A DNA stretch of 64,000 bases from Raillietiella orientalis (Eukaryota). The stretch spans positions 124,001-188,000 of the forward strand of contig JAYWIR010000100.1 in NCBI GenBank assembly GCA_036172245.1, given 5' to 3'. Made by a program: the position numbers and the translations under genes. The notes beneath the pieces were generated by a model. It did no database searches. It was not told the DNA's origin and saw only the letters and a list, made by a program, of their open reading frames with translations. Shown here in pieces: positions 1 through 64,000 of this stretch. Positions within the stretch are counted from its first letter, which is position 1. Each line of letters begins with the position of its first letter.

Positions 1-554
1 TACCATGAAAACAACAAAGAGTAAAAAGTGCCACAGCCTAATGAAATTTCGAACTCTTCTTAATCATGCTCTCAAATCAGGAAATAGGAAGGCCTTGAGC
101 CTCTCCATGACGAGAATTTGTCACTGACTGCAAATAGATGCTTCCAGAGGAGGAGCAAAACAGCAATGGTGAAATCCCCTCCTTTCGAAATGATTACAAA
201 GCCTGAAAGGTTGCAAATTTCTACCACATCATGAATCAGAGCGAACGAAAAGATTCCTCTTCTAGGTACGACAGTGGTTACCGTGAAAACAACAGATAGA
301 CCAAAGTGCCACGCCCAAATCTAATCTCGAACACTTCATAATCATCCTCTGAAATCGGGAAATTGGAAGTCCTTGAGTCTCTTCATGACGGGAATTTGCA
401 ACTTACTGCAAATGGATGCTTAGTGAAAAGGCGCAATAGTGCAGCAGTAATATCCTCTGATTTCCAATTGATTACAAAGCCGGAAAGGTTGCAAATTTTT
501 ACCACATCATGAATGAGAGCGAAGGAAAAGATTCCTTTTCTAGGTACGACACTG

Positions 555-568
555 GTTACCATGAAAAC
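555..568. promoter_or_regulatory. Representative X-box-like (RFX/DAF-19 consensus) motif GTTACCATGAAAAC; this or a close variant sits at the same position in each monomer
   Basis: Matches the degenerate X-box consensus GTHNYY-AT-RRNAAC. Variants GTTACTATGAAAAC, CTTACCATGAAAAC and TTTACCATGAAGAC occur in other monomers. This is a motif match only; there is no functional evidence. Confidence 0.3.
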
Positions 569-3500
569 AACAAAGAGTAAAAAGTGCCACGGCCGAATGA
601 ACTCTCGAATTCTTCGTAATCATGCTCTGAAATCAGAAAATTGGAAGGCCTTGAGCCTCTCCATGACGCGAATTTGTCACTGACTGCAAATAGATGCTTC
701 CAGAGGAGGAGCAAAACAGCAATGGTGAAATCCCCTTATTTCCGATTGTTTACAAAACTTGAAAACTTGCAAATTTCTACCACATCATGACTCAGAGCGA
801 AGTACAAGATTGCTCTTCTAGGTAGTCTATGTTGTTTTTTTGGTAATCAGAGTCCAAAGTGCCATGCTGTCATGAAATTTCGAACTCTTCATATTCAGTC
901 TCTTAAATCAGGAAATTGGAATGCCTTGAGGCTTTCCATGACGGGAATTTGCCACTCACTGCAAATGGATGCTTAGTGAAAAGGCGCGAAACTGCAATAG
1001 AAAAATCCCCTGATTTCCAATTGATTACAAAGACCGAAAAGATGCAAATTTCTACCACATCATGAATCAGAGCGAAGGAAAAGATTCTTCTTCTAGATAC
1101 GACACTGCTTACCATGAAAACAACACAGATACCAAAGTGCCACGCCCTAACCTTATTTCGAACACTTCTTAGTCATCCTCTGAAATCAGGAAATTGGAAA
1201 GCCGTGAGCCTCTCCATGACGGGAATTTGGCACTTACTGCAAATGGATGCTTACTGAAAAGGCGCAATATTGCAACAGTAATATCCCCTGATTTCCAATT
1301 GATTACAAAGCCTGAAAGGATGCAAATTTCTGCCACATCATGAATGAGAGCGAAGTATCTGATTCCTCTTCTAGGTACGACACTGCTTACCATGAAATTA
1401 ACACAGTGACCAAAGTGCCACGCCCTAACCTAATTTCGAACCCTTCTTAGTCATCCTCTGAAATCAGTAGATTGGAAGGCCGTGAGCCTCTCCATGAAGG
1501 GAATTTGCCATTCACTGCAAATGTAAGCTTACTGAAAAGGCGCAAAAGTGCAATAGTAAAATCCCCTCATTTCCAATTGGTTACAAACCCTGAAAGGTTG
1601 CAAATTTTTACCACATACTGAATTAGAGCGAAGGAAAGAATTCCTCTTCTAGGTACGACACCGGTTACTATGAAAACAACAGATAGACTAAGGTGCCACG
1701 GCCTAATCTAATTTCGAACACTTCATAATCATCCTCTGAAATCGGGAAATTGGAAGGCCTTGAGTCTCTTCATGACGGGAATTTGCAACTTACTGCAAAT
1801 GGATGATTAGTGAAAAGGCGCAATAGTGCAACAGTAATATCCTCTGATTTCCAATTGATTACAAAGCCGGAAAGGTTGCAAATTTTTACCACATGATGAA
1901 TGAGAGCGTAGGAAAAGATTCCTTTTCTAGGTATGACACTGGTTACCATGAAAACAACAAAGAGTAAGAAGTGCCACGGCCTAATGAAATTTCCAACTCT
2001 TCGTAATCATCCTCTGAAATCAGGAAATTGGAAGTCCTTGAGCATCTCCATGACTGGAATTTGCCACTCACTGCAAATAGATGCTTCGTGAAGAGGCGCA
2101 AAACTGCAATGGAGAAATCCCCTGATTTCGAATTGATTACAAAGCCTGAAAGGTTGCAAATTTCTACCACATCATGAATCAGAGCGAAGGAAAAGATTCC
2201 TCTTCTAGGAAAGACAGTGGTTAACAGGGAAACAACACAGAGACCAAAGCACCACCCTCTAATCTAATTTGGAAGACTTCATAATCATCCTCTGAATTCG
2301 GGAAATTCGAAGGCCGTGAGCCTCTCCATGACGGGAATTTGCCACTCACTGGAAATAGATGATTCGTGAAGAGGTGCAAAACTGCAATGGAGGAATCCTC
2401 TAATTTCGAATTGATTACACAGACTGAAAGGTTGCAAATTTCTACCACATTATGAATCAGAGCGAACGAAAAGATTCCTCTTCTAGGTACGATAGTGGTT
2501 ACCATGAAAACAACACAGAGACCAAAGTGCCACGCCCTAACCTAGTTTCGAACTCTTCTTAGTCATCCTCTGAAATCAGGAAATAGGAAGGCCGTGAGCC
2601 TCTCCATGACGGGAATTTGCCACTCACTGCAAATGTATGCTTAATGAAAAGGTGCAAAAGTGCAATAGTAAAATCCACTCATTTCCAATTGGTTACAAAA
2701 CCTTAAAGTTTGCAAATTTTTACCACATACTGAATTAGAGCGAAGGAAAAAATTCCTCTTCTAGGTACGACACTGGTTACTATGAAAACAACAGATAGAC
2801 CAAAGTGCCACGCCCTAATCTAATTTCGAACTCTTCTTAATCATTCTCTGAAATCAGGAAATTGGATGCCCTAGAGGCTCTTAATGACTGCAATTTCCCA
2901 CTCAATGGAAATAGATGCTTCGCGAAGAGGTGCAAAACCGCAATGGAGAAATCCCTGGGTTTCGAATTGTTTACAAAGCTTGTAAGGTAGCAAACATCTA
3001 AGACATCATGGATAACAACGTTCGAAAAGATTCCTCTTCTAGGTACGACAGTGATTACCATGAAAACAACACAGACTCCAAAGTTCCACGTCCTAATGTA
3101 ATTTCGATATCTTCGTAATCATCCTCTGAAATCGGGAAATTGGTAGGCCTTGAGCCTCTCCATGACGGGAATTTCTTACTCACTGCAAATGTATGCTTAC
3201 TGAAAAGGCGCAAAAGTGCAATAGTAAAATCCCCTCATTTCCAATTGGTTACAAACCCTGAAAGGTTGCAAATTTTTACCACATACTGAATTAGAGCGAA
3301 AGAAAAAATTCCTCTTCTAGTTACGACACTGCTTACCATGAAAAAAACACAGAGACCAAAGTGCCACGCCCTAACCTAATTTCGAACACTCCATAATCAT
3401 GTTCTGAAATCAGGAAATTGGAAGGCCTTGAGCCTCTCCATGACGGGAATTTGCCACTCACTGGAAATAGATGCATCGTGAAGAGGTGGAAAACTGCAAT

Positions 3501-6500
3501 GGAGAAATCCTTTGATTTCGAATTGATTACAAAGCCTGAAAGGTTGCAAATTTCTACCACATCATGAATCAGAGCGAACAAAAAGATTCCTCTTCTTGGA
3601 AAAACAGTGGTTACTATGAAAACAACACAGAGACCAAAGCACCACCCTCTAATCTATTTTGGAACACTTCTTAATCATCCGCTGAAATCAGCAAATTGGA
3701 AGGGCTTGAGGCTTTCCATGGCGGAAATTTGCCACTCACTGCAATCGTATGCTTAGTGAAAAGACGCAGAAGTGCTATAGTAAAATCCCCTGATTTCCAA
3801 TTGGTTACAAACCCTGAAAGTTTGCAAATTTTTACCACATAGTGAATTGGAGCAAAGGAAAAAATTCCCATTCTAAATACGACACTGGTTACTATAAAAC
3901 AACAGATAGATTAAAGTGCCACGCCCTAATCTAATTTCGAACACTTCATAATGATTCTCTGAAATCGTGAAATTTGAAGGCCTCTAGTCTCTTCATGACG
4001 GGAATTTGCCACTTACTGCAAATGGATGCTTAGTGAAAAGGTGCAATAGTGCAACAGTAATATCCTGTCATTTCCAATTGATTACAAAGCCGGAAAGGTT
4101 GCAAATTTTTACGACATCACGAATCAGAGCGAAGTATAAGATTCCTCTTCTAGGTTCTCTGTTTTGTTTTTATGGTAATCAGAGTCCAAAGTACCATGCT
4201 CGCATTAAATTTGGAACTCTTTACAATCAGGCTCTTAAATCAGGATACTGGAAGGCCTTGAGGCTTTCCATGACGGGAATTTGCCACTCACTGCAAATGG
4301 ATGCTTAGTGAAAAGGCGCAAAAGTGCAATAGTAAAATCCCCTGATTTCCAATTGATTACAAAGCCGGAAAGGTTGCAAATTTTTACCAAATCATGAATC
4401 AGAGCGAAGGAAAAGATTCCTTTACTAGGTACGACACTGGTTACCATGAAAACAACACAGAGTACAAAGTGCCACCGCCTAATGAAATTTCGAACTCTTT
4501 TTAATCATGCCCTGAAATCGGGAAATTGGGTGGCCTTGAGCCTCTCCATGACGGAAATTTGGCACTTACTGGAAATGGATGCTTACTGAAAAGGCGCAAT
4601 ATTGCAACAGTAATATCCCCTAATTTCCAATTGATTACAATGCCTGAAAGGATGCAAATTTCTACCACATCATGAATCAGAGCGAAGTATAAGATTCCTC
4701 TTCTAGGTACGACTCTGCTTACCATGAAAACAACACAGAGACCAAAGTGCCACGGTCTAACGTAATTTCGAACTCTTGTTAGTCACCCTCTGAAATCTGG
4801 AAATTGGAAGTCCTTGAGCCTCTCCATGACGAGAATTTGCCACTCACTGGAAATAGATGCATCGTGAAGAGGTGCAAAACTGCAATGCAGAAATCCCCAG
4901 ATTTCGAATTGATTACAAAGCCTGAAAGGTTGCAAATTTCTACCAGATCATGAATCAGAGCGAAGGTAAAGATTCCTCTTCTAGGAAAGACAGTGCTTAC
5001 CATCAAAACAACACAGAGACCAAAGTACCACGCCCTAATCTAATTTCGAACACTTCTTAATCATCCTCTGAAATCGGGAAATTGGAAGGCCTTGAGTCTC
5101 TTCATGACGGGAATTTGCCACTTACTGCAAATGGATGCTTAGTGAAGAGGCGCAAAACTGCAATGGAGAAATCCCCTGATTTCGAATTGATGACAAAGCC
5201 TGAAGGGTTGCAAATTTCTACCAGATCATGAATCAGAGCGAAGGTAAAGATTCCTCTTCTAGGAAAGACAGTGCTTACCATCAAAACAACACAGAGACCA
5301 AAGCACCACCCGCTAATCTAATATCGAACACTTCAAAATCATCCTCTGAAATCGAGAAATTGGAAGGCCTTGAGTCTCTTTATGACGGGAATTCGCCACT
5401 TACTGCAAAAGTATGCTTAGTCAAAAGGCGCAAAAGTGCAACAGTATTATCCTCTGATTTCCAATTGATTACAAAGCCTGAAGGGATGCAAATTTCTACC
5501 ACCTCATGAATCAGAGCGAAGTATAAGAGTCCTCTTCTAGGTACGACACTGCTTACCATGAAAACAACACAGAGACCAAAGTGTCACGCCCTAATCTAAT
5601 TTCGAACTCTTCGTAATCATCCTCTGAAATTGAGAAATTGATAGGCCTTGAGTCTCTTCATGACGGGAATTTGCAACTTACTGCAAATGGATGCTTAGTG
5701 AAAAGGCGCAATAGTGCAACAGTAATATCCTCTGATTTCCAATTGATTACAAAGCCGGAAAGGTTGCAAATTTTTACCACATCATGAATGAGAGCGAAGG
5801 AAAAGATTACTTTTCTAGGTACGACACTGCTTACCATGAAATTAACACAGAGACCAAAGTGCCACGCCCTAACCTAATTTCGAACTCTTCGTAATCATGC
5901 TCTGAAATTGGGAAATTGGAAGGCCTTGAGTCTCTTCATGACGGGAATTTGCAACTTACTGCAAATGGATGCTTAGTGAAAAGGCGCAATAGTGCAACAG
6001 TAATATCCTCTGATTTCCAATTGATTACAAAGCCGGAAAGGTTGCAAATTTTTACCACATCATGAATGAGAGCGAAGGAAAAGATTCCTTTTCTAGGTAC
6101 GACACTGGTTACCATGAAAACAACAAAGAGTAAAAAGTGCCACGTCCTAATGAACTCTCGAACTCTTCTTAATCATGCTCTGAAATCAGAAAATTGGAAG
6201 GCCTTGAGCCTCTCCATGACGCGAATTTGTCACTGACTGCAAATAGATGCTTCGTGAGGAGGAGCAAAACAGCAATGGTGAAATCCCCTTATTTCCGATT
6301 GATTACAAAACTTGAAAACTTGCAAATTTCTACCACATCATGACTCAGAGCGAAGTACAAGATTGCTCTTCTAGGTAGTCTATGTTGTTTTTTTGGTAAT
6401 CAGAGTCCAAAGTGCCATGCTCTCATGAAATTTCGAACTCTTCATATTCAGTCTCTTAAATCAGGAAATTGGAATGCCTTGAGGCTTTCCATGACGGGAA

Positions 6501-7679
6501 TTTGCCACTCACTGCAAATGGATGCTTAGTGAAAAGGCGCGAAACTGCAATAGAAAAATCCCCTGATTTCCAATTGAATACAAAGACCGAAAAGATGCAA
6601 ATTTCTACCACATACTGAATTAGAGCGAAGGGAAAAATTCCTCTTCTAGGTACGACACTGGTTACTATGAAAACAACAGAGAGCCCAAAGTGCCACGCCC
6701 TAATCTAATTTCGAACACTTCTTAGTCATCCTCTGAAATCAGGAAATTGGAAAGCCGTGAGCCTCTCCATGAAGGGAATTTGCCACTCACTCCAAATGTA
6801 TGCTTACTGAAAAGGCGCAAAAGTGCAATAGTGAAATGTCCTCATTTCCAATTGGTTACAAACACTGAAAGGTTGCAAATTTTTACCACATACTGAATTA
6901 GAGCGAAAGAAAAAATTCCTCTTCTAGTTGCGACACTGCTTACCATGAAAACAACACAGAGACCAAAGTGCCACGCCCTAACCTAATTTCGAACACTCCA
7001 TAATCATGTTCTGAAATCAGGAAATTGGAAGGCCTTGAGCCTCTCCATGACGAGAATTTGCCACTCACTGGAAATAGATGATTCGGAAAGAGGTGCAAAA
7101 CTGCAATGGAGGAATCCCCTAATTTCGAATTGATTACACAGCCTGAAAGGTTTCAAATTTCTACCACATCATGAATCAGAGCGAAGGAAAAGATTCCTCT
7201 TCTAGGAACGACAGTGGTTACCATGAAAACAACACAGAGTACAAAGTGCCACGGCCTAATGAAATTTCGAACTCTTCATAATCATGCTCTCAAATCAGCA
7301 AATTGGAAGGCCGTGAGCCTCGCCATGACGGGAATTTGCCACTCACTGGAAAAACATGCTTCGCGATGAGGTGCAAAACTGCAATGGAGAAATCCCCGGG
7401 TTTCGAATTGATTACAAAACTTGAAAAGTTGCAAATTACTACCATATAATGAATCAGAACGAAGTATAAGATTCCTCTTCCAGATAGGACACTGTTTACC
7501 ATGAAAAGAACACAGAGACCAAAGTGCCACGCCCTAATCTAATTTCGAACTCTTCGTAATCATCCTCTGAAATCGGGAAATTGGAAGGCCTTGAGTCTCT
7601 TCATGACATGAATTTGCAACTTACTGCAAATAGATGCTTCGTGAAGAGGCGCAAAACTGCAATAGACAAATCACCTGAT

Positions 7680-10600
7680 TTCGAATTGATTACAAAGCCT
7701 GAAAGGTTGCAAATTTCTACCACATCATGAATGGGAGCGAACGAAAAGATTCCTCTTCTAGGAAAGACAGTGGTTACTATGAAAACAACACAGAGGCCAA
7801 AGCATCACCCCCTAATCTAATTTCGAACACTTCTTAATCATCCGCGGAAATCAGCAAAATGGAAGGCCTTGAGGCTTTCCATGACGGATATTTGGCACTC
7901 ACTGCAAACGTATGCCTAGTGAAAAGGCACAGAAGTGCTATAGTAAAATCCCCTGATTTTTAATTGGTTACAAACCCAGAAAGTTTGCAAATTTTTACCA
8001 CATACTGAATTAGAGCGAAGGAAAAAATTCCTCTTCTAGGTACGACACTGGTTTTTCTGAAAACAACAGATAGACCAAAGTGCCACGCCCTATTCTAATT
8101 TCGAACACTTGATAATCATCCTCTGAAATCGTGAAATTGGAAGGCTTTGAGTCTCTTCATGACGGGAATTTGCCACTTACTGCAAATGGATGCTTAGTCA
8201 AAAGGCGCAAAAGTGCAATAGTAAAATCCCCTGAATTCCAATTGATTACAAAGCCGGAAAGGTTGCAAATTTTAACCACATCATGAATCAGAGCTAAGGA
8301 AAAGATTTCTTTTCTAGGTGCTACACTGGTTACCATGAAAACAACAGATAGACCAAAGTGCCACGCCCTAATCTAATTTCGAACTCTTCTTAATCATCCT
8401 CTGAAATCAGGAAATTGGATGCCCTAGAGGCTCTTAATGACTGCAATTTGCGACTGAATGGAAATAGATGCTTCGCGAAGAGGTGCAAAACTGCAATGGA
8501 GAAATCCCCGGGTTTCGAATTGTTTACAAAGCCTGTAGGGTAGCAAATTTCTACCACATCATGGAAAACAACGAACGAAAAGATTCCTCTTCTATGTACG
8601 ACAGTGATTACCATGAAAACAACACAGACTCCAAAGTTCAAGGCCCTAATGATATTTCCGACTCTTCTTAATCATGCTCTGAAATCGGGAAATTGGTAGG
8701 CCTTGAGGCTCTCCATGACGGGAATTTGCACTCACTGCAAATGGATGCTTACTGAAAAGGCGCAATATTGCAATGGAGAAATCCCCTGATTTCGAATTGA
8801 TTACAAAGCCTGAACGGTTGCAAATTTCTACCACATCATGAATCAGAGCAAAGGAAAAGATTCCTCTTCTAGAAAAGACAGTGGTTACGATGAAAACAAC
8901 ACAGAGACCAAAGTGCCACGCCCTAACCTAGTTTCGAACTTTTCTTAGTCATCCTCTGAAATCAGGAAATAGGAAGGCCGTGAGCCTCTCCATGACGGGA
9001 ATTTGCCACTCACTGCAAATGTATTCTTAATGAACAGGCGCAAAAGTGCAATAGTAAAATCCACTCATTTCCAATTGGTTACAAAACCTTAAAGTTTGCA
9101 AATTTTTACCACATACTGAATTAGAGCGAAGGAAAAAATTCCTCTTCTAGGTACGACACTGGTTACTATGAAAACAACAGATAGACCAAAGTGCCACGCC
9201 CTAATCTAATTTCGAACTCTTCTTAATCATACTCTGAAATCAGGAAATTGGATGCCCTAGAGGTTCTTAATGACTGCAATTTGCCACTCAATGGAAATAG
9301 ATGCTTCGCGAAGAGGTGCAAAACTGCAATGGAGAAATCCCCGGGTTTCGAATTGATTACAAAGCCTGAAAGGTTGCAAATTTCTACCACATCATGAATG
9401 GGAGCGAACGAAAAGATTCCTCTTCTAGGAAAGACAGTGGTTACTATGAAAACAACACAGAGGCCAAAGCATCACCCCCTAATCTAATTTCGAACACTTC
9501 TTAATCATCCGCGGAAATCAGCAAAATGGAAGGCCTTGAGGCTTTCCATGACGGATATTTGGCACTCACTGCAAACCTATGCCTAGTGAAAAGGCACAGA
9601 AGTGCTATAGTAAAATCCCCTGATTTCCAATTGGTTACAAACCCAGAAAGTTTGCAAATTTTTACCACATACTGAATTAGAGCGAAGGAAAAAATTCCTC
9701 TTCTAGGTACGACACTGGTTTTTCTGAAAACAACAGATAGACCAAAGTGCCACGCCCTATTCTAATTTCGAACACTTGATAATCATCCTCTGAAATCGTG
9801 AAATTGGAAGGCCTTGAGTCTCTTCATGACGGGAATTTGCCACTTACTGCAAATGGATGCTTAGTCAAAAGGCGCAAAAGTGCAATAGTAAAATCCCCTG
9901 ATTTCCAATTGATTACAAAGCCGGAAAGGTTGCAAATTTTAACCACATCATGAATCAGAGCTAAGGAAAAGATTTCTTTTCTAGGTGCTACACTGGTTAC
10001 CATGAAAACAACAGATAGACCAAAGTGCCACGCACTAATCTAATTTCGAACTCTTCTTAATCATCCTCTGAAATCAGGAAATTGGATGCCCTAGAGGCTC
10101 TTAGTGACTGCAATTTGCGACTGAATGGAAATAGATGCTTCCCGAAGAGGTGCAAAACTGCGATGGAGAAATCCCCGGGTTTCGAATTCTTTACAAAGCC
10201 TGTAGGGTAGCAAATTTCTACCACATCATGGATAACAACGAACGAAAAGATTCCTCTTCTAGGTACGACAGTGATTACCATGAAAACAACACAGACTCCA
10301 AAGTTCCAGGCCCTAATGATATTTCCGACTCTTCTTAATCATGCTCTGAAATCGGGAAATTGGTAGGCCTTGAGCCTCTCCATGACGGGAATTTGCACTT
10401 ACTGCAAATGGATGCTTACTGAAAAGGCGCAATATTGCAATGGAGAAATCCCCTGATTTCGAATTGATTACAAAGCCTGAAAGGTTGCAAATTTCTACCA
10501 CATCATGAATCAGAGCAAAGGAAAAGATTCCTCTTCTAGAAAAGACAGTGGTTACGATGAAAACAATACAGAGACCAAAGTGCCACGCCCTAACCTAGTT

Positions 10601-11015
10601 TCGAACTTTTCTTAGTCATCCTCTGAAATCAGGAAATAGGAAGGCCGTGAGCCTCTCCATGACGGGAATTTGCCACTCACTGCAAATGTATGCTTAATGA
10701 AAAGGCGCAAAATTGCAATAGTAAAATCCACTCATTGAAAATTGGTTACAAAACTTTAAAGTTTGCAAATTTTTACCACATACTCAATTAGAGCGAAGGA
10801 AAAAATTCCTCTTCTAGGTACGACACTGGTTACTATGAAAACAACAGATAGACCAAAGTACCACGCCCTAATCTAATTACGAACTCTTCTTAATCATCCT
10901 GTGAAATCAGGAAATTGGATGCCCTCCAGGCTCTTAATGACTGCAATTTGCCACTCAATGGAAATAGATGCTCCGCGAAGAGGTGCAAAACTGCAATGGA
11001 GAAATCCCCGGGTTT
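7680..11015. repeat. Two tandem copies of a 6-monomer higher-order repeat (1667 bp)
   Basis: ORF pairs 8390/10057, 8468/10135 and 8646/10313 are all 1667 apart. The diagnostic 'agcatcacccccta...tccgcggaaatcagc' occurs at 7801 and 9468. Ends are approximate. Confidence 0.9.
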
Positions 11016-14000
11016 CGAATTGTTTACAAAGCCTGTAAGGTAGCAAACTTCTTAAACATCATGGATAACAACGATCGAAAAGATTCCTCTTCTAGGTACG
11101 ACAGTGATTACCATGAAAACAACACAGACTCCAAAGCTCCACGCCCTAATGAAATTTCGATATCTTCGTAATCATCCTCTGAAATCGGGAAATTGGTAGG
11201 CCTTGAGCCTCTCCATGACGGGAATTTCCCACTCACTGCGAATGTATGCTTACTGAAAAGGCGCAAAAGTGCAATAGGAAAATCCCCTCATTTCCAATTG
11301 GTTACAAACCTTAAAAGGTTGCAAATTTTTACCACATACTGAATTAGAGCGAAAGAAAAAATTCCTCTTCTAGTTACGACACTGCTTACCATGAAAACAA
11401 CACAGAGACCAAAGTGCCACGCCCTAACCTAATTTCGAACACTCCATAATCATGTTCTGAAGTCAGGTAATTGGAAGGCCTTGAGCCTCTCCATGACGAG
11501 AATTTGCCACTCACTGGAAATAGATGCATCGTGAAGAGGTGGAAAACTGCAATGGAGAAATCCCCTGATTTCGAATTGATAACAAAGCCTGAAAGGTTGC
11601 AAATTTCTACCACATCATGAAGCAGAGCGAACAAAAAGATTCCTCTTCTTGGAAAAACAGTGGTTACTATGAAAACAACACAGAGACCAAAGCACCACCC
11701 TCCAATCTATTTTGGAACACTTCTTAATCATCCGCTGAAATCAGCAAATTGGAAGGGCTTGAGGCTTTCCATGGCGGAAATTTGCCACTCACTGCAATCG
11801 TATGCTCAGTGAAAAGACGCAGAAGTGCTATAGTAAAATCCCCTGATTTCCAATTGGTTACAAACCCTGAAAGTTTGCAAATTTTTACCACATAGTGAAT
11901 TGGAGCGAAGGAAAAAATTCCTATTCTAAATACGACACTGGTTACTATAAAACAACAGATAGACCAAAGTGCCACGCCCTAATCTAATTTCGAACACTTC
12001 ATAATCATCCTCTGATATCGTGAAATTGGAAGGCCTTGAGTTTCTCCATGACGGAAATTTGGAACTTACTGCAAATGGATGCTTACTCAAAAGGCGCAAT
12101 ATTGCAACAGTAAGATCCCCTGATTTCCAATTGATTACAATGCCTGAAAGGATGCAAATTTCTACCACATCGTGAATCAGAGCGAACAAAAAGATTCCTC
12201 TTCTAGGAAAAACTGTGGTTACTATGAAAACAACACAGAGACCAAAGTACCACCCCCTAATCTAATATCGAACACTTCAAAATCATCCTCTGAAATCGAG
12301 AAATTGGAAGGCCTTGAGTCTCTTTATGACGGGAATTTGCCACTTACTGCAAAAGTATGCTTAGTGAAAAGGCGCAATAGTGCAACAGTAATATCCTCTG
12401 ATTTCCAATTGATTACAAAGCCGGAAAGGTTGCAAATTCTTACCACATCATGAATAAGAGCGAAGGAAAAGATTACTTTTCTAGGTACGACACTGCTTAC
12501 CATGAAAACAATACAGAGACCAAAGTGCCACGCCCTAGACAATTTTCGACTTCTTCTTAGTCATCCTCTGAAATCAGGAAATTGGAAGGCCGTGAGCCTC
12601 TCCATGACATGAATTTGCCACTCACTGCAAATAGATGCTTCGTGAAGAGGCGCAAAACTGCAATGGAGAAATCCCCTGAATTCGATTTGATTACAAAGCC
12701 TGAAAGGTTGCAAATTTCTACCACATCATGAATCAGAGCGAAGGAAAAGATTCCTCTTCTAGGAAAGACAGTGGTTAACAGGGAAACAACACAGAGACCA
12801 AAGCACCACCCTCTAATCTGATTTGGAACACTTCATAATCATCCTCTGAAATCGGGAAATTCGAAGGCCGTGAGCCTCTCAATGACGGGAATTTGCCACT
12901 CACTGGAAATAGATGATTCGTGAAGAGGTGCAAAACTGCAATGGAGGAATCCCCTAATTTCGAATTGATTACACAGCCTGAAAGGTTGCAAATTTCTATT
13001 ACATTATGAATCAGAGCGAACGAAAAGATTCCTCTTCTAGGTACGATAGTGGTTACCATGAAGACAACACAGAGACCAAAGTACCACGCCCGAACTTAAT
13101 TTCGTACTCTTCTTAATCATCCTCTGAAATCAGAAAATTTGAAGGCCTTGAGCCTCTCCATGATGCGAATTTGGCACTGACTGCAAATTGATGCTTCGTG
13201 AAGACGAGCAAAACTGCAATGGTGAAATCCCCTGATTTCCGATTGATTACAAAACTTGAAAAGTTGCAAATTTCTACCACATCATGAATCAGAGCGAAGT
13301 ACAAGATTGCTCTTCTAGGTAGTCTATGTTGTTTCTATGGTAATCAGAGTCCAAAGTGCCATGCTCTCATGAAATTTCGAACTCTTCATGATCAGGCTCT
13401 TAAATCAGGAAATTGGAACGCGTTCAGGCTTTCCATGACAAGAATTTGCCACTCACTGCAAATGGATGCTGAGTGAAAAGGCGCAAAACTGCAATTGAAA
13501 AATCCCCTGATTTCCAATTCATTACAAAACTTGAAAAGTTGCAAATTTCTACCACATCATGAATCAGAGCGAAGTACAAGATTGCTCTTCTAGGTAGTCT
13601 ATGTTGTTTTTATGGTAATCAGATTCCAAAGTGCCATGCGCTGATGAAATTTCGAACTCTATAATCATGCTCTTAAATCAGATAATTGGAAGGCCTTGAG
13701 GCTTTCCATTACGTTAATTTCCCACTCACTGCAAATGCATTCTTAGTGAAAAGGCTCAAAAGTGCTATAGTAAAATCCCCTGATTTCGAATTGATTACAA
13801 AGCCTGAAAGGTTGCAAATTTCTACCACATCATGAATCAGAGCGAAGGAAAAGATTCCTCTTCTAGGAACGACAGTGGTTACCATGAAAACAACACAGAG
13901 TACAAAGTACCACGGCCTAATGAAATTTCGAACTCTTCATAATCAGGCACTTAAATCAGGAAATTAGAAAGCCTTGAAACTTTCCATGACATGAATTTGC

Positions 14001-14969
14001 CACTCACTGCAAATAGGTGCTTCGTGAAGAGGAGCACAACTGCAATCGTGAAACTCCCTGATTTCGAATTGATTACAAAACTTGAAAAGTTTCAAATTAC
14101 TACCATATAATGAATCAGAACGAAGTATAAGATTCCTCTTCTAGGCAGGACACTGTTTACCATGAAAACAACACAGAGACCAAAGTGCCACGCCCTAACC
14201 TAATTTCGAACTCTTTTTAATCATCCTCTTAAATCAGGAAAATGGAAGCCCTTGAGGATCTTCATGACGGCAATTTGCCCCTCACTGGAAATAGATGCTT
14301 CGCGAAGAGGTGCAAAACTGTAATGGAGAAATTACCGTGTTTCGAATTGATTACAAAGCCTGTAAGGTAGCAAATTTTAACACATCATGGATCAGAGCGA
14401 ACGAAAATATTCCTCTTCTAGGAACGACAGTGGTTACCATGAAGTCAACACAGAGATCGAAGTACCACCCCCTAATCTAATTTCGAACACTTCTTAATCA
14501 TCCGCTGTAATCAAAAAAATGGAAGGCCTTGAGGCTTTCCATGACGGAAATTTGCCACTCACTGCAAATGTATGCTTAGTGAAAAGGCGCAAAAGTGCTA
14601 TAGGAAAATCCCCTGATTTCCAATTGGTTACAAACCCTGAAAGTTTGCAAATTTTTACCACATACTGAATTAGAGCGAAGGAAAAAATTCTCTTCTAGGT
14701 ACGACACTGGTTACTATGAAAACAACAGATCGACCAAAGTGCCACGCCCTAATTTAATTTCGAAGACTTCATAATCATCCTCTGAACTCGGTATATTGGA
14801 ATGCATTGAGTCTCTTTATGACGGGAATTTGCCACTTACTGCAAATGTATGCTTAGTGAAAAGGCGCAATAGTGCAACAGTAATATCCTCTGATTTCCAA
14901 TTGATTACAAAGCCGGAAAGGTTGCAAATTTTTAACACATCATGAATCAGAGCGAAGGAAAAGATTACT

Positions 14970-17900
14970 TTTCTAGGTACGACACTGCTTACCATGAAAA
15001 CGACACAGAGACCAAAGTGCCACGCCCTAACCTATTTTCGACCTCTTCTTAGTCATCCTCTGAAATCAGGAAATTGGAAGGCCGTGAGCCTCTCCATGAC
15101 ATGAATTTGCCACTCACTGCGAATGTAGGCTTAGCGAAAAGCAGCAAAATTGCAATAGTAAAATCCCATGATTTCCAATTTATTCCAAGCCTGTAAGGTT
15201 GCAAATTTTTACCACATCTTGAATCCGAGCGAAGTATAAGATTCCTCTTCTAGGTACGACACTGCTTACCATGAAAACAACACAGAGACCAAAGTGCCAC
15301 GCCCTAACCAATTTTCGACCTCTTCTTAGTCATCCTCTGAAATCAGGAAATTGGAATGTTGTGAGCCTCTCCATGACATGAATTTGCCACTCACTGCAAA
15401 TAGATGCTTCGTGAAGAGGAGCAAAACTGCAATGGTGAGATTCCCTGATTTCGAATTGATTACAAAACTTAAAAGTTGCAAATTACTACCATATAATGAA
15501 TCAGAACGAAGTATAAGATTCCTCTTCCAGGTAGGACACTGTTTACCATGAAAACAACATAGAGACCAAAGTGCCACGCCCTAATCTAATTTCGAACTCT
15601 GCTTAATCATTCTCTGAAATCAAAAAATTGGAAGCCCTTGAGGCTCTTCATGATGGCGATTTGCCACTCAATGGAAATAGATGCTTCGCGAAGAGGTGCA
15701 AAACTGCAATGGAGAAATCCCCGGGTTTCGAATTGATTACAAAGCCTGTAAGGTAGCAAATTTTTACCAGTTCATGGATCAGAGCGAACGAAAATATTCC
15801 TCTTCTTGGAACGACAGTGGTTACCATTAAGACAACACAGATACCAACGTACCACCCCCTATTCTAATTTCGAACACTTCTTAATCATCCGCTGTAATCA
15901 GGAAATTGGAAGGCCTTGAGGCTTTCCATGACGGAAATTTGCCACTCACTGCAAATGTATGCTTAGTGAAAAAGCGCAAAAGTGCTATAGTAAAATCCCC
16001 TGATTTCCAATTGGTTACACACCCTGAAAGTTTGCAAATTTTTACCACATACTGAATTAAAGCGAAGGGAAAAATTCCTCTTCTAGGTACGACACTGGTT
16101 ACTATGAAAACAACAGAAAGCCCAAAGTGCCACGCCCTAATCTAATTTCGAACACTTCATAATCATCCTCTGAAATCGGGAAATTGGAAGGCCTTGAGTC
16201 TCTTCATGACGGGAATTTGCCACTTACTGCAAATGGATACTTACTGAAAAGGCGCAATTGTGCAACAGTAATATCCCCTGATTTTTAGTTGATTACAAAG
16301 CATGTAAGGATGCAAATTTCTACCACATCATGAATCAGAGCGAAGTATAAGATTCCTCTTCCAGTTACGACACTGCTTACCATGAAAACAACACAGAGAC
16401 CAAAGTGCCACGCCCTAACCTAATTTCGAACTTCTCTTAGTCATCCTGTGATATCAGGAAATTGGAAGGCCGTGAACCTGTCCATGACATGAATTTGCCA
16501 CTCACTGCAAATAGATGCTTCTTGAAGAGGAGCAAACCTGCAATGGTGAAATTCACTGATTTCGAATTGATTACAAAACTTGAAAAGTTGCAAATTACTA
16601 CCATATAGTAAATCAAAACGAAGTATAAGATTCCTCTTCTAGGTAGGACACTGTTTACCATAAAAAGAACACAGAGACCAAAGTGCCACGCCCTAATCTA
16701 ATTTCGAACTCTTCTTAATCATCCTCTGAAATCAGGAAATTGGAAGCCCTTGAGGCTCTTCATGACGGCAATTTGCCACTCACTGGAAATAGATGCTTCG
16801 CGAAGAGGTGCAAAACTGCAATGGAGAAATTCCCGGGTTTCGAATTGATTACAAAGCCTGTAAGGTAGCAAATTTTTACCACATCATGGATCAGAGGGAA
16901 CGAAAATATTCCTTTTCTAGGAACGACAGTGGTTACCATTAAGACAACACAGAGACCAAAGTGCCACCCCCTAATCTAATTTCGAACACTTCTTAATCAT
17001 CCGCTGTAATTAGGAAATTGGAAGGCCTTGAGGCTTTCCATGACGGGAATTTGCCACTTACTGCAAATGTATGCTTAGTGAAAAGGCGCAATAGTGCAAC
17101 AGTAATATCCTCTGATTTCCAATTGATTACAAAGCCGTAAAGGTTGCAAATTTTTACCACATCATGAATCAGAGCGAAGGAAAAGATTACTTTTCTAGGT
17201 ACGACACTGGTTACCATGATAACAACACAGAGCACAAAGTGCCACGGCCTATTCAAATTTCGAACTTTTCTTAATCATGCTCTGAAATCGGGAAATTGGA
17301 AGGCCTTGAGCCTCTCCATGACGGGAATTTGCCACTCACTGCAAATGTATGCTTAGCGAAAAGCAGCAAAAGTGCAATAGTAAAATCCCCTGATTTCCAA
17401 TTTATTCCAAGCCTGTAAGGTTGCAAATTGTTACCACATCTTGAATCAGAGCGAAGTATAAGATTCCTCTTCTAGGTACGACACTGCCTACCATGAAAAC
17501 GACACAGAGACCAAAGTGCCACGCCCTAACCTATTTTCGACCTCTTCTTAGTCATCCTCTGAAATCAGGAAATTGGAAGGCCGTGAGCCTCTCCATGACA
17601 TGAATTTGCCACTCACTGCGAATGTATGCTTAGCGAAAAGCAGCAAAATTGCAATAGTAAAATCCCATGATTTCCAATTTATTCCAAGCCTGTAAGGTTG
17701 CAAATTTTTACCACATCTTGAATCCGAGCGAAGTATAAGATTCCTCTTCTAGGTACGACACTGCTTACCATGAAAACAACACAGAGACCAAAGTGCCACG
17801 CCCTAACCAATTTTCGACCTCTTCTTAGTCATCCTCTGAAATCAGGAAATTGGAATGTTGTGAGCCTCTCCATGACATGAATTTGCCACTCACTGCAAAT

Positions 17901-19900
17901 AGATGCTTCGTGAAGAGGAGCAAAACTGCAATGGTGAGATTCCCTGATTTCGAATTGATTACAAAACTTGAAAAGTTGCAAATTACTACCATATAATGAA
18001 TCAGAACGAAGTATAAGATTCCTCTTCCAGGTAGGACACTGTTTACCATGAAAACAACATAGAGACCAAAGTGCCACGCCCTAATCTAATTTCGAACTCT
18101 GCTTAATCATTCTCTGAAATCAAAAAATTGGAAGCCCTTGAGGCTCTTCATGATGGCGATTTGCCACTCAATGGAAATAGATGCTTCGCGAAGAGGTGCA
18201 AAACTGCAATGGAGAAATCCCCGGGTTTCGAATTGATTACAAAGCCTGTAAGGTAGCAAATTTTTACCAGTTCATGGATCAGAGCGAACGAAAATATTCC
18301 TCTTCTTGGAACGACAGTGGTTACCATTAAGACAACACAGATACCAACGTACCACCCCCTATTCTAATTTCGAACACTTCTTAATCATCCGCTGTAATCA
18401 GGAAATTGGAAGGCCTTGAGGCTTTCCATGACGGAAATTTGCCACTCACTGCAAATGTATGCTTAGTGAAAAAGCGCAAAAGTGCTATAGTAAAATCCCC
18501 TGATTTCCAATTGGTTACAAACCCTGAAAGTTTGCAAATTTTTACCACATACTGAATTAAAGCGAAGGGAAAAATTCCTCTTCTAGGTACGACACTGGTT
18601 ACTATGAAAACAACAGAAAGCCCAAAGTGCCACGCCCTAATCTAATTTCGAACACTTCATAATCATCCTCTGAAATCGGGAAATTGGAAGGCCTTGAGTC
18701 TCTTCATGACGGGAATTTGCCACTTACTGCAAATGGATACTTACTGAAAAGGCGCAATTGTGCAACAGTAATATCCCCTGATTTTTAGTTGATTACAAAG
18801 CATGTAAGGATGCAAATTTCTACCACATCATGAATCAGAGCGAAGTATAAGATTCCTCTTCCAGTTACGACACTGCTTACCATGAAAACAACACAGAGAC
18901 CAAAGTGCCACGCCCTAACCTAATTTCGAACTTCTCTTAGTCATCCTGTGATATCAGGAAATTGGAAGGCCGTGAACCTGTGCATGACATGAATTTGCCA
19001 CTCACTGCAAATAGATGCTTCGTGAAGAGGAGCAAAACTGCAATGGTGAAATTCACTGATTTCGAATTGATTACAAAACTTGAAAAGTTGCAAATTACTA
19101 CCATATAGTAAATCAAAACGAAGTATAAGATTCCTCTTCTAGGTAGGACACTGTTTACCATAAAAAGAACACAGAGACCAAAGTGCCACGCCCTAATCTA
19201 ATTTCGAACTCTTCTTAATCATCCTCTGAAATCAGGAAATTGGAAGCCCTTGAGGCTCTTCATGACGGCAATTTGCCACTCACTGGAAATAGATGCTTCG
19301 CGAAGAGGTGCAAAACTGCAATGGAGAAATTCCCGGGTTTCGAATTGATTACAAAGCCTGTAAGGTAGCAAATTTTTACCACATCATGGATCAGAGGGAA
19401 CGAAAATATTCCTTTTCTAGGAACGACAGTGGTTACCATTAAGACAACACAGAGACCAAAGTGCCACCCCCTAATCTAATTTCGAACACTTCTTAATCAT
19501 CCGCTGTAATTAGGAAATTGGAAGGCCTTGAGGCTTTCCATGACGGGAATTTGCCACTTACTGCAAATGTATGCTTAGTGAAAAGGCGCAATAGTGCAAC
19601 AGTAATATCCTCTGATTTCCAATTGATTACAAAGCCGTAAAGGTTGCAAATTTTTACCACATCATGAATCAGAGCGAAGGAAAAGATTACTTTTCTAGGT
19701 ACGACACTGGTTACCATGATAACAACACAGAGCACAAAGTGCCACGGCCTATTCAAATTTCGAACTTTTCTTAATCATGCTCTGAAATCGGGAAATTGGA
19801 AGGCCTTGAGCCTCTCCATGACGGGAATTTGCCACTCACTGCAAATGTATGCTTAGCGAAAAGCAGCAAAAATGCAATAGTAAAATCCCCTGATTTCCAA
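14970..19900. repeat. Two tandem near-identical copies of a 9-monomer higher-order repeat (~2500 bp)
   Basis: ORF pairs 15326/17825 (2499), 16437/18937 (2500) and 16993/19493 (2500, identical proteins). Similarity ends near 17400/19900. Confidence 0.92.
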
Positions 19901-22669
19901 TTTCTTACAAAGCCTGTAAGGTTGCAAATTTTTACCACATCTTGAATCAGAGCGAAGTATAAGATTTCTCTTCTAGGTACGACACTGCTTACCATGAAAA
20001 CGACACAGAGACCAAAGTGACACGCCCTAACCTATTTTCGACCTCTTCTTAGTCATCCTCTGAAATCAGGAAATTGGAAGGCCGTGAGCCTCTCCATCAC
20101 ATGAATTTGCCACTCACTGCAAATAGATGCTTCGTGAAGAGGAGCAAAACTGCAATGGAGAAATCCCCGGGTTTCGAATTGATTACACAGCCTGTAAGGT
20201 AGCAAATTTTTACCACTCTATGGATCAGAGCGAACGAAAATATTCCTCTTCTTGGAACGACAGTGGTTGCCATTAAGACAACACAGAGACCAAGGTACCA
20301 CCCCCTAATCTAATTTCGAACACTTCTCAATCATCCTCTGAAATCAGGAAATTGGAAGTCCGTGAGCCTCTCCATGACATGAATTTGCCACTCACTGCAA
20401 ATAGATGCTTCGTGAAAACGAGCAAAACTGCAATGGTGAAATTCCCTGATTTCGAATTGATTACAAAACTTGAAAAGTTGCAAATTACTACCATATAATG
20501 AAACAGAACGAAGTATAACATTCCTCTTCCAGGTAGGACACTGTTTACCATGAAAACAACACAGAGACCAAAGTGCCACGCCCTAATCTAATTTCGAACT
20601 CTTCTTAATCATCCTCTGAAATCAGGAAATTGGAAGCCCTTGAGGCTCTTCATGACGGCGATTTGCCACTCACTGGAAATAGATGCTTCGCTAAGAGGTG
20701 CAAAACTGCAATGGAGAAATCCCCGGGTTCCGAATGGATTACAAAGCCTGTAAGGTAGCAAATTTTTACCACTTCATGGATCAGAGCGAACGAAAATATT
20801 CCTCTTCTTGGAACGACAGTGCTTACCATCAAGACAACACAGAGACCAAAGTACCACCCCCTAATCTAATTTCGAACACTTCTTAATCATCCGCTGTAAT
20901 CAGGAAATTGGAAGGCCTTGAGGCTTTCCATGACGGAAATTTGCCACTCACTGCAAATGTATGCTTAGTGAAAAGGCGCAAAAGTGCTATAGGAAAATCC
21001 GCTGATTTCCAATTGGTTACAAACCCTGAAAGTTTGCACATTTTTACCACATATTGAATTAGAGCGAAGGGAAAAATTCCTCTTCTTGGTAAGAAACTGC
21101 TTACCATGAAAACAACACAGAGACCAAAGTGCCACGCCCTAATCTAATTTCGAACTCTTCTTAATCATCCTCTGAAATCAGCAAATTGGAAGCCCTTGAG
21201 GCTGTTCATGACGGCAATTTGCCACTCACCGGAAATAGATGCTTCGTGAAGAGGCGCAAAAGTGCTATATTAAAATCCCCTGATTTCCAATTGGTTACAA
21301 ACCCTGAAAGTTTGCCAGTGTTTAATACATACTGAATTAGTGCGAAGGAAAAAATTCCTCTTCTAGGTACGACACTGGTTACTATGAAAACAACAGACAG
21401 ACCAAAGTGCCACGCCCTAATCTAATTTCGAACACTTCATTATCATCCTCTGAAATCGGGAAAATGGAAGGCATTGAGTCTCTTCATGACAAGAATTTGC
21501 CACTTACTGCAAATGGATGCTTAGTGAAAAGGCGCAATAGTGCAACAGTAATATCCCCTGATTTCCAATTGGTTACAAACACTGAAAGGTTGCAAATTTT
21601 TACCACATACTGAATTAGAGCGAAGGAAAAGATTCCTCTTCTAGGAACGACAGTGGTTACCATGAAAACAACACAGAGACCAAAGTGCCACGCTTTAACT
21701 TAATTTCGTACTCTTCTTAATCATCCCCTGAAGTCAGAAAATTGGAAGGCCTTGAGCCTCTCCATGACGCGAATTTGCAACTCACTGCAAATAGATGCTT
21801 CGTGAAGTTTAGCACAACTGCAATGGTGAAATCCCCCGATTTCCGATTGATTACAAAACTTGAAAAGTTGCAAATTTCTACGACATCATGAATCAAAGCG
21901 AAGTATAGGATTCCTCTACTAGGAACTCTGGGTTGTTTTTATTATAATCAGAGTCCAAAGTGCCATGCTCTCATGAAATTTCGAACTCTTCATAATCAGG
22001 CTCTTAAATCAGGAAATTGGAAGGCCTTGAGGCTTTTATGACGGGAATTTGCCACTCACGGCAAATGGATGCTTAGTGAAAAGGCGCAAAACTGCAAGAG
22101 AAAAATCCCCTGATTTCCAATTGATTACAAAACTTGATAAGTTGCAAATTTCTACCACATCATGAATCAGAGCGAAGTATAAGATTGCTCTTTTAGGTAC
22201 TCTATGTTGTTTTCATGATAATCAGTGTCCAAAGTGCCTTGCGCTGATGAAATTTCGAACTCTTTATAATCATGCTCTTAAATGAGATAATTGGAATGAC
22301 TTGAGGCTTTCCATGACGGGAATTTGCCACTCATTGCAAATGGATGCTTAGTGAAAAGGCGCAATAGTGCAACAGTAATATCCTCTGATTTCCAATTGAT
22401 TGCAAAACCTGAAAGTTTGCAAATTTTTACCCCATACTGAATTAGAGCGAAGGAAAAAATTCCTCTTCTACGTACGACACTGTTTACCATGAAAACAACA
22501 CAGAGACCAAAGTGGCACGCCCTAATCTAATTTCGAACTCTTCTTAATCATCCTCTGAAATCAGGAAATTGGAATCGATTGAGGCTGTTCATGACGGCAA
22601 TTTGCCACTTACTGGAAATAGATGCTTCCCGAAGAGGTGCAAAACTGCAATGGTGAAATTCGCTGATTT

Positions 22670-24770
22670 CCAATTGATTACAAAACTTGAAAAGTTGCAA
22701 ATTTCTACCACATCATGAATCAGAGCGAAGTACAAGATTGCTCTTCTAGGTAGTCTATGTTGTTTCTATGGTAATCAGAGTCCAAAGTGCCATGCTCTCA
22801 TGAAATTTCGAACTCTTCATGATCAGGCTCTTAAATCAGGAAATTGGAACGCGTTCAGGCTTTCCATGACAAGAATTTGCCACTAACTGCAAATGGATGC
22901 TGAGTGAAAAGGCGCAAAACTGCAATTGAAAAATCCCCTGATTTCCAATTCATTAGAAAACTTGAAAAGTTGCAAATTTCTACCACATCATGAATCAGAG
23001 CGAAGTACAAGATTGCTCTTCTAGGTAGTCTATGTTGTTTTTATGGTAATCAGATTCCAAAGTGCCATGCGCTGATGAAATTTCGAACTCTATAATCATG
23101 CTCTTAAATCAGATAATTGGAAGGCCTTGAGGCTTTCCATTACGTTAATTTCCCACTCACTGTAAATGTATTCTTAGTGAAAAGGCTCAAAAGTGCTATA
23201 GTAAAATCCCCTGATTTCGAATTGATTACAAAGCCTGAAAGGTTGCAAATTTCTACCACATCATGAATCAGAGCGAAGGAAAAGATTCCTCTTCTAGGAA
23301 CGACAGTGGTTACCATGAAAACAACACAGAGTACAAAGTACCACGGCCTAATGAAATTTCGAACTCTTCATAATCAGGCTCTTAAATCAGGAAATTAGAA
23401 AGCCTTGAAACTTTCCATGACATGAATTTGCCACTCACTGCAAATAGGTGCTTCGTGAAGAGGAGCACAACTGCAATGGTGAAACTCCCTGATTTCGAAT
23501 TGATTACAAAACTTGAAAAGTTTCAAATTACTACCATATAATGAATCAGAACGAAGTATAAGATTCCTCTTCTAGGCAGGACACTGTTTACCATGAAAAC
23601 AACACAGAGACCAAAGTGCCACGCCCTAACCTAATTTCGAACTCTTTTTAATCATCCTCTTAAATCAGGAAATTGGAAGCCCTTGAGGATCTTCATGACG
23701 GCAATTTGCCCCTCACTGGAAATAGATGCTTCGCGAAGAGGAGCAAAATTGCAATGGTGAAATCCCCTGATTTCGAATTGATTACAAAGCCTGTAAGGTA
23801 GCAAATTTGTACCACATCATGGATCAGAGCGAACGAAAATATTCCTCTTCTAGGAACGACAGTGGTTACCATGAAGTCAACACAGAGATCGAAGTACCAC
23901 CCCCTAATCTAATTTCGAACACTTCTTAATCATCCGCTGTAATCAGGAAATTGGAAGGCCTTGAGGCTTTCCATGACGGAAATTTGCCACTCACTGCAAA
24001 TGTATGCTTAGTGAAAAGGCGCAAAAGTGCTATAGTAAAATCCCCTGATTTCCAATTGGTTACAAACCCTGAAAGTTTGCAAATTTTTACCACATACTGA
24101 ATTAGAGCGAAGGAAAAAATTCTCTTCTAGGTACGACACTGGTTACTATGAAAACAACAGATCGACCAAAGTGCCACGCCATAATTTAATTTCGAAGACT
24201 TCATAATCATCCTCTGAACTCGGTAAATTGGAATGCATTGAGTCTCTTCATGACGGGAATTTGCCACTTACTGCAAATGTATGCTTAGTGAAAAGGCGCA
24301 ATAGTGCAACAGTAATATCCTCTGATTTCCAATTGATTACAAAGCCGGAAAGGTTGCAAATTTTTAACACATCATGAATCAGAGTGAAGGAAAAGATTAC
24401 TTTTCTAGGTACGACACTGCTTACCATGAAAACGACACAGAGACCAAAGTGCCACGCCCTAACCTATTTTCGACCTCTTCTTAGTCATCCTCTGAAATCA
24501 GGAAATTGGAAGGCCGTGAGCCTCTCCATGACATGAATTTGCCACTCACTGCGAATGTATGCTTAGCGAAAAGCAGCAAAATTGCAATAGTAAAATCCCA
24601 TGATTTCCAATTTATTCCAAGCCTGTAAGGTTGCAAATTGTTACCACATCTTGAATCAGAGCGAAGTATAAGATTCCTCTTCTAGGTACGACACTGCTTA
24701 CCATGAAAACAACACAGAGACCAAAGTGCCACGCCCTAACCAATTTTCGACCTCTTCTTAGTCATCCTCT
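22670..24770. repeat. Dispersed duplicate of block ~13240-15340 (offset ~9431 bp, ~34 monomers), including a pair of inverted-cassette monomers
   Basis: Shared private variants such as 'ggaacgcgttcaggct', 'ttccattacgttaatttccc' and 'gaaactccctgat'. The inverted cassettes at 13321 and 22752 correspond. Confidence 0.85.
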
Positions 24771-32600: not shown

Positions 32601-33899
32601 TCACTGCAAATAGATGCTTCGTGAAGAGGAGCAAAACTGCAATGGTGAGATTCCCTGATATCGAATTGATTACAAAACTTGAAAAGTTGCAAATTACTAC
32701 TATATAATGAATCAGAACGAAGTATAAGATTCTTCTTCCAGGTAGGACACTGTTTACCATGAAAACAACATAGAGACCAAAGTGCCACGCCCTAATCTAA
32801 TTTCGAACTCTTCTTAATCATTCTCTGAAATCAAAAAATTGGAAGCCCTTGAGGCTCTTCATGACGGCGATTTGCCACTCAATGGAAATAGATGCTTCGC
32901 GAAGAGCTGCAAAACTGCAATGGAGAAATCCCCGGGTTTCGAATTGATTACAAAGCCTGTAAGGTAGCAAATTTTTACCAGTTCATGGATCAGAGCGAAC
33001 GAAAATATTCCTCTTCTTGGAACGACAGTGGTTACCATTAAGACAACACAGATACCAAAGTACCACCCCCTATTCTAATTTCGAACACTTCTTAATCATC
33101 CGCTGTAATCAGGAAATTGGAAGGCCTTGAGGCTTTCTATGACGGAAATTTGCCACTCACTGCAAATGTATGCTTAGTAAAAAGGCGCAAAATTGCTATA
33201 GTAAAATCCCCTGATTTCCAATTGGTTACAAAGCCTGAAAGTTTGCAAATTTTTACCACATACTGAATTAGAGCGAAGGGAAAAATTCCTCTTCTAGGTA
33301 CGACACTGGTTACTATGAAAACAACAGATAGGCAAAAGTGCCACGCCCTAATCTAATTTCGAACACTTCATAATCATCCTCTGAAATCGGGAAATTGGAA
33401 GGCCTTGAGTCTCTTCATGACGGGAATTTGCCACTTACTGCAATTGGATGCTTACTGAAAAGGCGCAATTGTGCAACAGTAATATCCCCTGATTTTTAGT
33501 TGATTACAAAGCATGAAAGGATGCAAATTTCTAGCACATCATGAATGAGAGCGAAGTATAAGATTCGTCTTCTAAGTACGACACTGCTTACCATGAAAAC
33601 GACACAGAGACCAAAGTGACACGCCCTAACCTATTTTCGACCTCTTCTTAGTCATCCTCTGAAATCAGGAAATTGGAAGGCCGTGAGCCTCTCCATCACA
33701 TGAATTTGCCACTCACTGCAAATAGCTGCTTCGTGAAGAGGAGCAAAACTGCAATGGAGAAATCCCCGGGTTTCGAATTGATTACACAGCCAGTAAAGTA
33801 GCAAATTTTTACCACTCTATGGATCAGAGCGAACGAAAATATTCCTCTTCTTGGAACGACAGTGGTTACCATTAAGACAACACAGAAACCAAGGTACCA

Positions 33900-63800: not shown

Positions 63801-64000
63801 AAGGTAGCAAATTTGTACCACATCATGGATCAGAGCGAACGATGATATTCCTCTTCTAGGTACGACACTGCTTACCATGAAAACAACACAGAGACCAAAG
63901 TGCCACCCCCTAATCTAATTTCGAACACTTCTTAATCATCCGCTGTAATCAGGAAATTGGAAGGCCTTGAGGCTTTCCATGACGGAAATTTGCCACTCAC
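33900..64000. repeat. Homogenised satellite domain built on a 5-monomer higher-order unit (1389 bp = 5x278-1) with rearranged variants
   Basis: Offsets of 1389 at 39517->40906->42295, 39771->41160, 40054->41443, 40314->41703, 55056->56445 and 61189->62578. One monomer type carries a fixed 1-bp deletion (gggaatttgcactcact). The same monomer types first appear at ~27250-29700. Confidence 0.9.
47045..47350. repeat. In-register patch of a diverged satellite variant, about 1.1 monomers long
   Basis: Dense private substitutions (e.g. 'tcagagcatagggaaacattgtctttctatctccgacact', 'gaaacttcgaagtcatctcaatgttcttctgaaccaagg') with near-identical HOR sequence on both sides. Confidence 0.88.

Follow-up and report, generated by a model that had tools for sequence, protein, structure and literature searches.

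The window, i.e. the whole 64,000-bp stretch analysed here (C100:124001-188000, in an assembly of 210 Mb and 491 contigs), consisted of a single 278-bp tandem satellite array (positions 1..64000, forward strand) with 230.5 copies, including 229 whole monomers. It is part of a 148.5-kb array (C100:50017-198544) that ran on one strand throughout to the contig end and was adjoined by an unrelated 1105-bp satellite (43 copies; C100:2319-50013). The box present in the 278-bp monomers was absent from this 1105-bp satellite, and a search of Rfam gave no match at E ≤ 0.1 for its piece L001, nor for the pieces L006 and L013. Within the window, an older mixed layer (1-23.1 kb) was followed by a homogenised layer (23500-64000) with higher-order periods of 2, 5, 9 and 26-27 monomers (556, 1389-1390, 2500 and 7225-7506 bp). 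At the array edge (C100:50017-50150; L006:17-150), about half a monomer immediately preceding the first flipped one was missing. In its place stood a short filler in which the adjacent AAG(T/A)ATAAGATT-like sequence was repeated, an arrangement resembling a templated insertion formed at a repair joint.

After the array had been split into monomers with a scored anchor and each monomer aligned on both strands, nine of the 229 whole monomers gave their better match to the 30-bp consensus cassette in reverse orientation (24-27 of 30 positions identical, versus 11-15 for the best forward alignment). The initial annotation had also described nine copies reading as the reverse complement of the cassette, and their starts lay within 1-3 bases of those found here. 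Local scores were 30-45 reversed versus 10-14 forward in the nine flipped cassettes, while in the 220 normal monomers of the window the forward score never fell below 30 and the reversed score never exceeded 13; none of 10,000 shuffles matched the observed score for any of the nine. All flipped monomers were located in the older mixed layer, and none was found in the homogenised layer (23.5-64 kb).

The flipped cassettes, all on the minus strand, lay at 825..854 (monomer 697-971, 275 bp; 24/30 identical reversed, 11/30 forward), 4157..4186 (monomer 4029-4303; 26/30 reversed, 15/30 forward), 6378..6407 (monomer 6250-6524), 13322..13351 and 13597..13626 (an adjacent pair, the second in a 273-bp monomer; 24/30 reversed each), 21926..21955 (274-bp monomer; 24/30 reversed), 22200..22229 (27/30 reversed, the nearest to a full 30-bp reverse complement), 22753..22782 and 23028..23057. 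Monomer-chain blocks identified the last two as block copies of the pair at 13322 and of the 273-bp monomer at 13597, respectively. Flipped monomers in the window were 273-275 bp long, about 3 bp short of 278. Around 22 bases were unambiguously reversed, and the last 7 (CAGAGTC in most copies) fitted equally the normal forward right end or the reversed left end; in the first cassette, for example, 826-847 were unambiguously reversed and 848-854 fitted both orientations. The right breakpoint is ambiguous because many normal monomers, as well as several outgroup arrays, have CAGAGTC as their forward right end. Of the in-place flip of about 30 bp on the ends gacactg...cagagac, as first described, the reversed segment was recovered but not the clean 30-bp breakpoints.

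Across the six contigs carrying this array family, 29 of 1466 monomers were flipped, all of them in one array type: 26/534 in C100, 2/194 in C160, 1/134 in C186, and none in C90 (0/436, a count that excludes C90:1-100000), C180 (0/143) and C307 (0/25). Three unclassified monomers were not flipped, one being diverged and two being 261-bp copies with a 17-bp loss around the left end of the cassette (C100:65312 and C160:45918), and 1434 normal monomers remained. The two flipped copies of C160 lay inside a 65-monomer block matching C100:57.5-75.5 kb with 0.11 differences per monomer; this pair may be the C100 locus assembled a second time, and a cautious count of flipped copies is therefore 27. 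The 29 copies comprised 12 distinct cassettes. Genome-wide, the pattern of a reversed box followed by the right flank had 23 matches, all belonging to this lineage, with none for the control.

A sequencing or assembly artefact might be suspected, since the public DNA run X1 contained 6% of the sampled words. The 12 distinct cassettes, distributed over three contigs, together with the lineage-structured flank alleles make an artefact very unlikely, and we consider its probability practically negligible. In addition, a 244-bp contig of X1, a run that may not be independent of the assembly, covered window positions 6266-6505 and crossed both junctions of the cassette at 6378..6407 with one other letter.

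The flipped monomers are best read as sharing one old origin, as the initial annotation had suggested. The junction geometry was the same in all 29 copies (32 bases, versus 35 in normal monomers). A linked downstream haplotype, also part of the first description, was retrieved: T at consensus 172 and T at consensus 211 occurred in 22/22 distinct flipped flank haplotypes each, versus 0.8% and 3.9% of the 1434 normal monomers, and T at consensus 107 occurred in 22/22 versus 24%. The copy at C100:50026, whose left flank is replaced by the array-edge junction, was excluded from both the allele counts and the trees. A tree of 77 sequences (17 distinct flipped haplotypes, the 45 nearest and 15 random normal ones), built from 60 bases per side after masking of the cassette, separated all 17 flipped haplotypes from the rest by a branch with support of 99/98. 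When all 770 distinct near-flank haplotypes were included, the flip required a single change (support of 97).

Trees built on longer flanks required more changes (two for the whole flank, four for the left flank and two for the right flank). The second change in the right flank was owed to one normal monomer, C186:36818-37095, with a normal cassette and near flank and the distal right flank of the flipped lineage. This monomer is a recombinant that marks an unequal-exchange junction between layers. We likewise attribute the extra changes in the whole-flank and left-flank trees to recombination, since unequal exchange would erode linkage with distance; the single origin consequently rests on the 60 bases per side and on the private alleles. 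Mean flank divergence was 11% among flipped monomers versus 17.8% among normal ones, indicating that the flip is old but younger than the family.

Repeated flipping of the cassette, with several origins of the flipped monomers, could also account for the two and four changes in the whole-flank and left-flank trees, and the box of most flipped copies is now flanked by 6-bp inverted arms, which could favour re-flipping. However, the breakpoints were identical and private alleles were present on both sides in all copies, which fell on a single branch of the masked near-flank tree. No flip was detected among 628 monomers of related arrays (292 + 168 + 168), nor by the genome-wide pattern outside the lineage, and no other micro-inversion of at least 15 bp was found in the 1437 non-flipped monomers. 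Recurrent flipping is already largely refuted by these comparisons and appears very improbable. The forward box of the 628 related-array monomers and of the 1434 normal monomers defines the ancestral state from which the single flip departed.

Overall, it is quite likely that 22-30 bp of one ancestral monomer were reverse-complemented with the loss of 3 bp, probably through one short-range inter-strand template switch, and that block duplication and unequal exchange then multiplied the product, likely in a neutral manner. The four-point template-switch model was fitted by exhaustive enumeration, using real normal cassettes as parents. With a parent ending in GTCC, the majority flipped sequence was obtained with two mismatches as type 1-3-4-2, which corresponds to an inverted repeat with an inverted spacer; with parents ending in GTAC or GACC, three mismatches remained and types 1-3-4-2 and 1-3-2-4 tied. 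In all optimal fits, point 1 preceded point 2 and the type was either 1-3-2-4 or 1-3-4-2. According to PMC5453318 (Loytynoja and Goldman 2017), this order of points is the inter-strand case, and types 1-3-2-4 and 1-3-4-2 represent 45% and 23%, respectively, of 794 human-chimp events. Template switching, the cause first put forward, is sufficient in a single step, leaving two to three residual mismatches. The ends proposed for it (gacactg...cagagac) are less well founded, as GTAC (4 bp) or AC (2 bp) with a return at CA/CAG fits as well or better.

During DNA replication, a nascent strand ending in ...GGTA(C) would have left its template, paired with the opposite strand at the right end of the cassette, through GTAC or AC depending on the parent, and been copied backwards through the box. 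Its return at a CA/CAG match (type 1-3-4-2) has a slightly better than even chance, and its return after the full cassette (type 1-3-2-4) falls slightly short of one. The two base changes degrading the box would be ordinary later or parental substitutions. We infer these steps from the end products, and an identical sequence would result from break repair that used a templated patch. Parental inverted ends were short and folded weakly (-1.4 to -3.4 kcal/mol); a stable hairpin is not required for the flip.

Some copies bear on the identity of the parent. The nearest normal monomers ended in GTAC, and outgroup arrays often in GTCC; the former may be recombinants carrying flipped-type right flanks. 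The copy at 22200..22229, the clearest one in the initial annotation, was the sole one retaining two ancestral-like bases (C in the box and T in the last 7 bases), which match a full 30-bp inversion, yet it was nested in the masked tree, and may be either a relic patch or a copy that reverted twice. A normal subfamily of 14-16 monomers (window 2918, 8471, 10138 and 10971, plus 11-12 more copies in C100/C90) shared two changes in its cassette with the reverse complement of the flipped one, namely an A at the first base of the box and ACT at the right end, although its flanks were distant. With the GATTACC...ACTCC subfamily as parent, the cassette fitted with two mismatches, while the near flanks were the most distant (17.7% versus 8.5-11.5%). 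The two bases shared by the 14-16 monomers may reflect chance, parentage or reverse conversion.

A different route to a single origin would start from a double-strand break or from a hairpin loop that was cut; end joining or a templated patch of the polymerase-theta type would then have rejoined the piece in reverse, losing 3 bp at the joint. The net loss of 3 bp at one junction would suit such a repair, as would the GTAC palindromes that can flank the cassette (191/1434 normal monomers) and the deletion with templated-looking filler found at the array edge just before the first flipped monomer. It would nevertheless require either a pair of cuts separated by 30 bp or a stable hairpin, in a parent that folds weakly, and none of the 29 flipped copies had the full 278-bp length with both GTAC ends. 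The change in length is already explained by a single switch, and we regard the rejoining of a reversed break as unlikely.

The flipped variant spread through the duplication of blocks and through unequal exchange, probably without selection, in agreement with the array amplification initially envisaged. Monomer chains revealed blocks of 13-65 monomers, duplicated at less than one difference per monomer, that carry flipped copies. These copies sit irregularly spaced in mixed layers and are absent from young homogenised layers. Near-identical blocks also extended to contig ends in two cases, C160:35942-53980 versus C100:57519-75553 (65 monomers) and C90:238664-248666 versus C180:29959-39969 (36 monomers), and possibly represent allelic or redundant contigs instead of real duplications.

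The reversed cassette contains an X-box-like core, which the initial annotation expected to roughly survive the flip owing to a near-palindromic centre. The normal core, GTTACCATGAAAAC, fits the loose X-box consensuses RYYNYY N1-3 RRNRAC and RYYVYY N1-3 RRHRAC, which are taken from PMC2375033 and are described there as non-predictive; they also fit 34% and 19% of shuffled monomers, respectively. The core has two mismatches to a palindromic X-box consensus (0.2% of shuffles were as good), and a strict mammalian consensus was failed by all 1434 normal monomers. A clean inversion of a double-stranded site preserves it whatever its symmetry. In the flipped copies, the exact box occurred in 0/29, each copy having two to four mismatches; the first G of GTT was lost in 29/29 and a second G was changed in 28. 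The expected survival of the site was thus not supported. A G-anchored consensus, which is our own blend of the two patterns of PMC2375033, was fitted by 0/29 flipped versus 679/1434 normal monomers, and the loosest consensus was still matched by 25/29 flipped copies. An accelerated decay of the box in flipped copies was not supported, as the two box changes on the flipped stem were within the neutral rate (P = 0.21).

Among normal monomers, the exact box was found in 79/507 in C100, 193/435 in C90 and 28/221 in the window. The value for C100 is no more than the approximately 21% expected from general divergence, which indicates that the host array is relaxed, and the box ranked 75th of 278 windows within C100.

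Beyond this array, the box is shared by a genome-wide superfamily of 275-281-bp satellites, forming at least two clades about 57% identical that have TGGTTRCCATGAAAAC in common in the same orientation. Clade 1 arrays were found in C23, C34, C59, C91, C7, C11, C105, C128, C159, C212 and C255, and clade 2 arrays at C1:12139494-12147865, C57:1-20000, C245:1491-3445 and C228:20156-21395; many of these arrays sit at contig ends. The exact 14-bp box had 4233 copies genome-wide (control: 3), and in clade 2 a 19-mer outside the box gave 12 matches versus 1851 for the 16-bp box. An ancient box flip fixed between the clades was rejected, since the orientation of the box relative to its flanks is the same in both; masked local scores between clades were 29-69 forward and 20-25 reverse, with shuffle maxima of 30-36, and were weak for C57. 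Loose matches to the cassette pattern in C212, C255, C245, C159, C105, C110 and C128 proved to come from related arrays and to be normal cassettes in forward orientation; the matches in C3 and C4 lay outside satellite. Whole-array strand changes were observed at C23:~3122020, C59:~733865 and C91:~245550, between different subfamilies in C23 and C91.

Conservation of the box between clades was re-tested on arrays found without it, because arrays found with the cassette or the box had biased the first tests; the resulting 24-bp invariant run over 8 consensuses (p = 0.0001) and the 15 of 16 invariant columns (0/20,000 permutations) were discarded as inflated. Of 6 consensuses found by non-box patterns, 5 contained the exact box. 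In a set of 7 consensuses that had been obtained independently of the box, it was the best-kept 16-column window (14/16 columns invariant, next best 10; p = 0.008), in permutations that ignore shared descent. The p value was 0.07-0.08 when the 64,000-bp window was compared with one clade 2 consensus, and 0.86 within clade 1 alone. These values are suggestive of constraint on the box between clades.

The cassette could accordingly be imagined as a functional box for an RFX-type protein, with flipped monomers kept or placed by selection, e.g. as spacers breaking the orientation of binding sites. RFX factors are known from promoters; the boxes examined all lay within satellite arrays. The genome encodes two PF02257 matches over the cut-off, one of them with 64 of 74 residues identical to the DNA-binding domain of human RFX1 (by-eye count), a likeness that suggests an animal genome; such a domain would be consistent with an RFX-type role, as would the 4233 exact copies and the fact that the flipped piece holds the best-kept 16 bp between the two clades. 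Within the host array, however, exact boxes do not exceed the expectation and the box ranks low among windows, its conservation is not significant within clade 1 and only about 0.08 pairwise between clades, and flipped copies are irregularly spaced and missing from the young homogenised layers. Selection on flipped monomers through such a box is quite improbable, and none of the results connects the flip with a function. It is likewise doubtful, although conceivable, that the box is an RFX docking site of the ~277-bp superfamily (more than 4200 exact copies, preserved between clades whose remaining sequence is near saturation), recruiting RFX to satellite, possibly centromeric, chromatin, of which the flipped subfamily would be a natural orientation-and-knockdown variant. 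If this were true, the flipped subfamily would let RFX docking be tested inside one array, and should a protein turn out to bind the box, a CENP-B-box-like role of RFX in satellites would be new. In a literature search that mostly left subscription journals outside its reach, no report was found of RFX binding to satellite DNA, nor of an intra-monomer satellite inversion defining a subfamily.

Short-range template-switch mutations, as described in PMC5453318, likewise produce a cluster of substitutions and a small deletion from one nearby opposite-strand fragment. The flip studied here has one opposite-strand fragment, two to three residual mismatches, an order of points that is among the types observed there (point 4 never precedes point 1, and point 1 precedes point 2 in a spacer inversion) and a known ancestral state. 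That study looked for its events outside masked repeats, and each is present in a single copy, whereas the present one lies in a satellite monomer, now has at least 27-29 copies through amplification and has since acquired two to three further substitutions. In yeast genes, PMC8604942 (Abraham and Hazkani-Covo 2021) reports spacer inversion and arm homogenisation between short inverted repeats, where an intermolecular switch turns the spacer around and may also make the arms perfect; this outcome is resembled by most flipped copies, with 6-bp perfect arms around an 18-bp inverted spacer. In yeast, the arms exceed 9 bp, the spacers measure 2-5 bp and flipping is repeated, in contrast to parent arms of 2-4 bp, a spacer of at least 18 bp and one origin here.

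Satellite micro-inversions in the pericentromeres of Hieracium alpinum are also ascribed to template switching or microhomology-mediated repair (PMC11566620), but they reverse runs of whole monomers, whereas the present inversion is intra-monomer and defines a subfamily. In the nematode Meloidogyne (PMC8097292, PMC3694981), divergent monomers similarly share a short box, and a box is associated with rearrangement points. The 19-bp Meloidogyne box is completely conserved and the repeats are bound by CenH3 in ChIP, whereas the box described here decays in its host array, shows modestly significant conservation between clades and is known from sequence alone.

The flip is therefore a known type of mutation in a new place, amplified within a satellite. 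The flipped cassette provides a homoplasy-poor marker of one monomer lineage, useful for dating array layers and for seeing unequal exchange, and the flipped lineage is a clean example that satellite turnover can amplify the products of short template switches.
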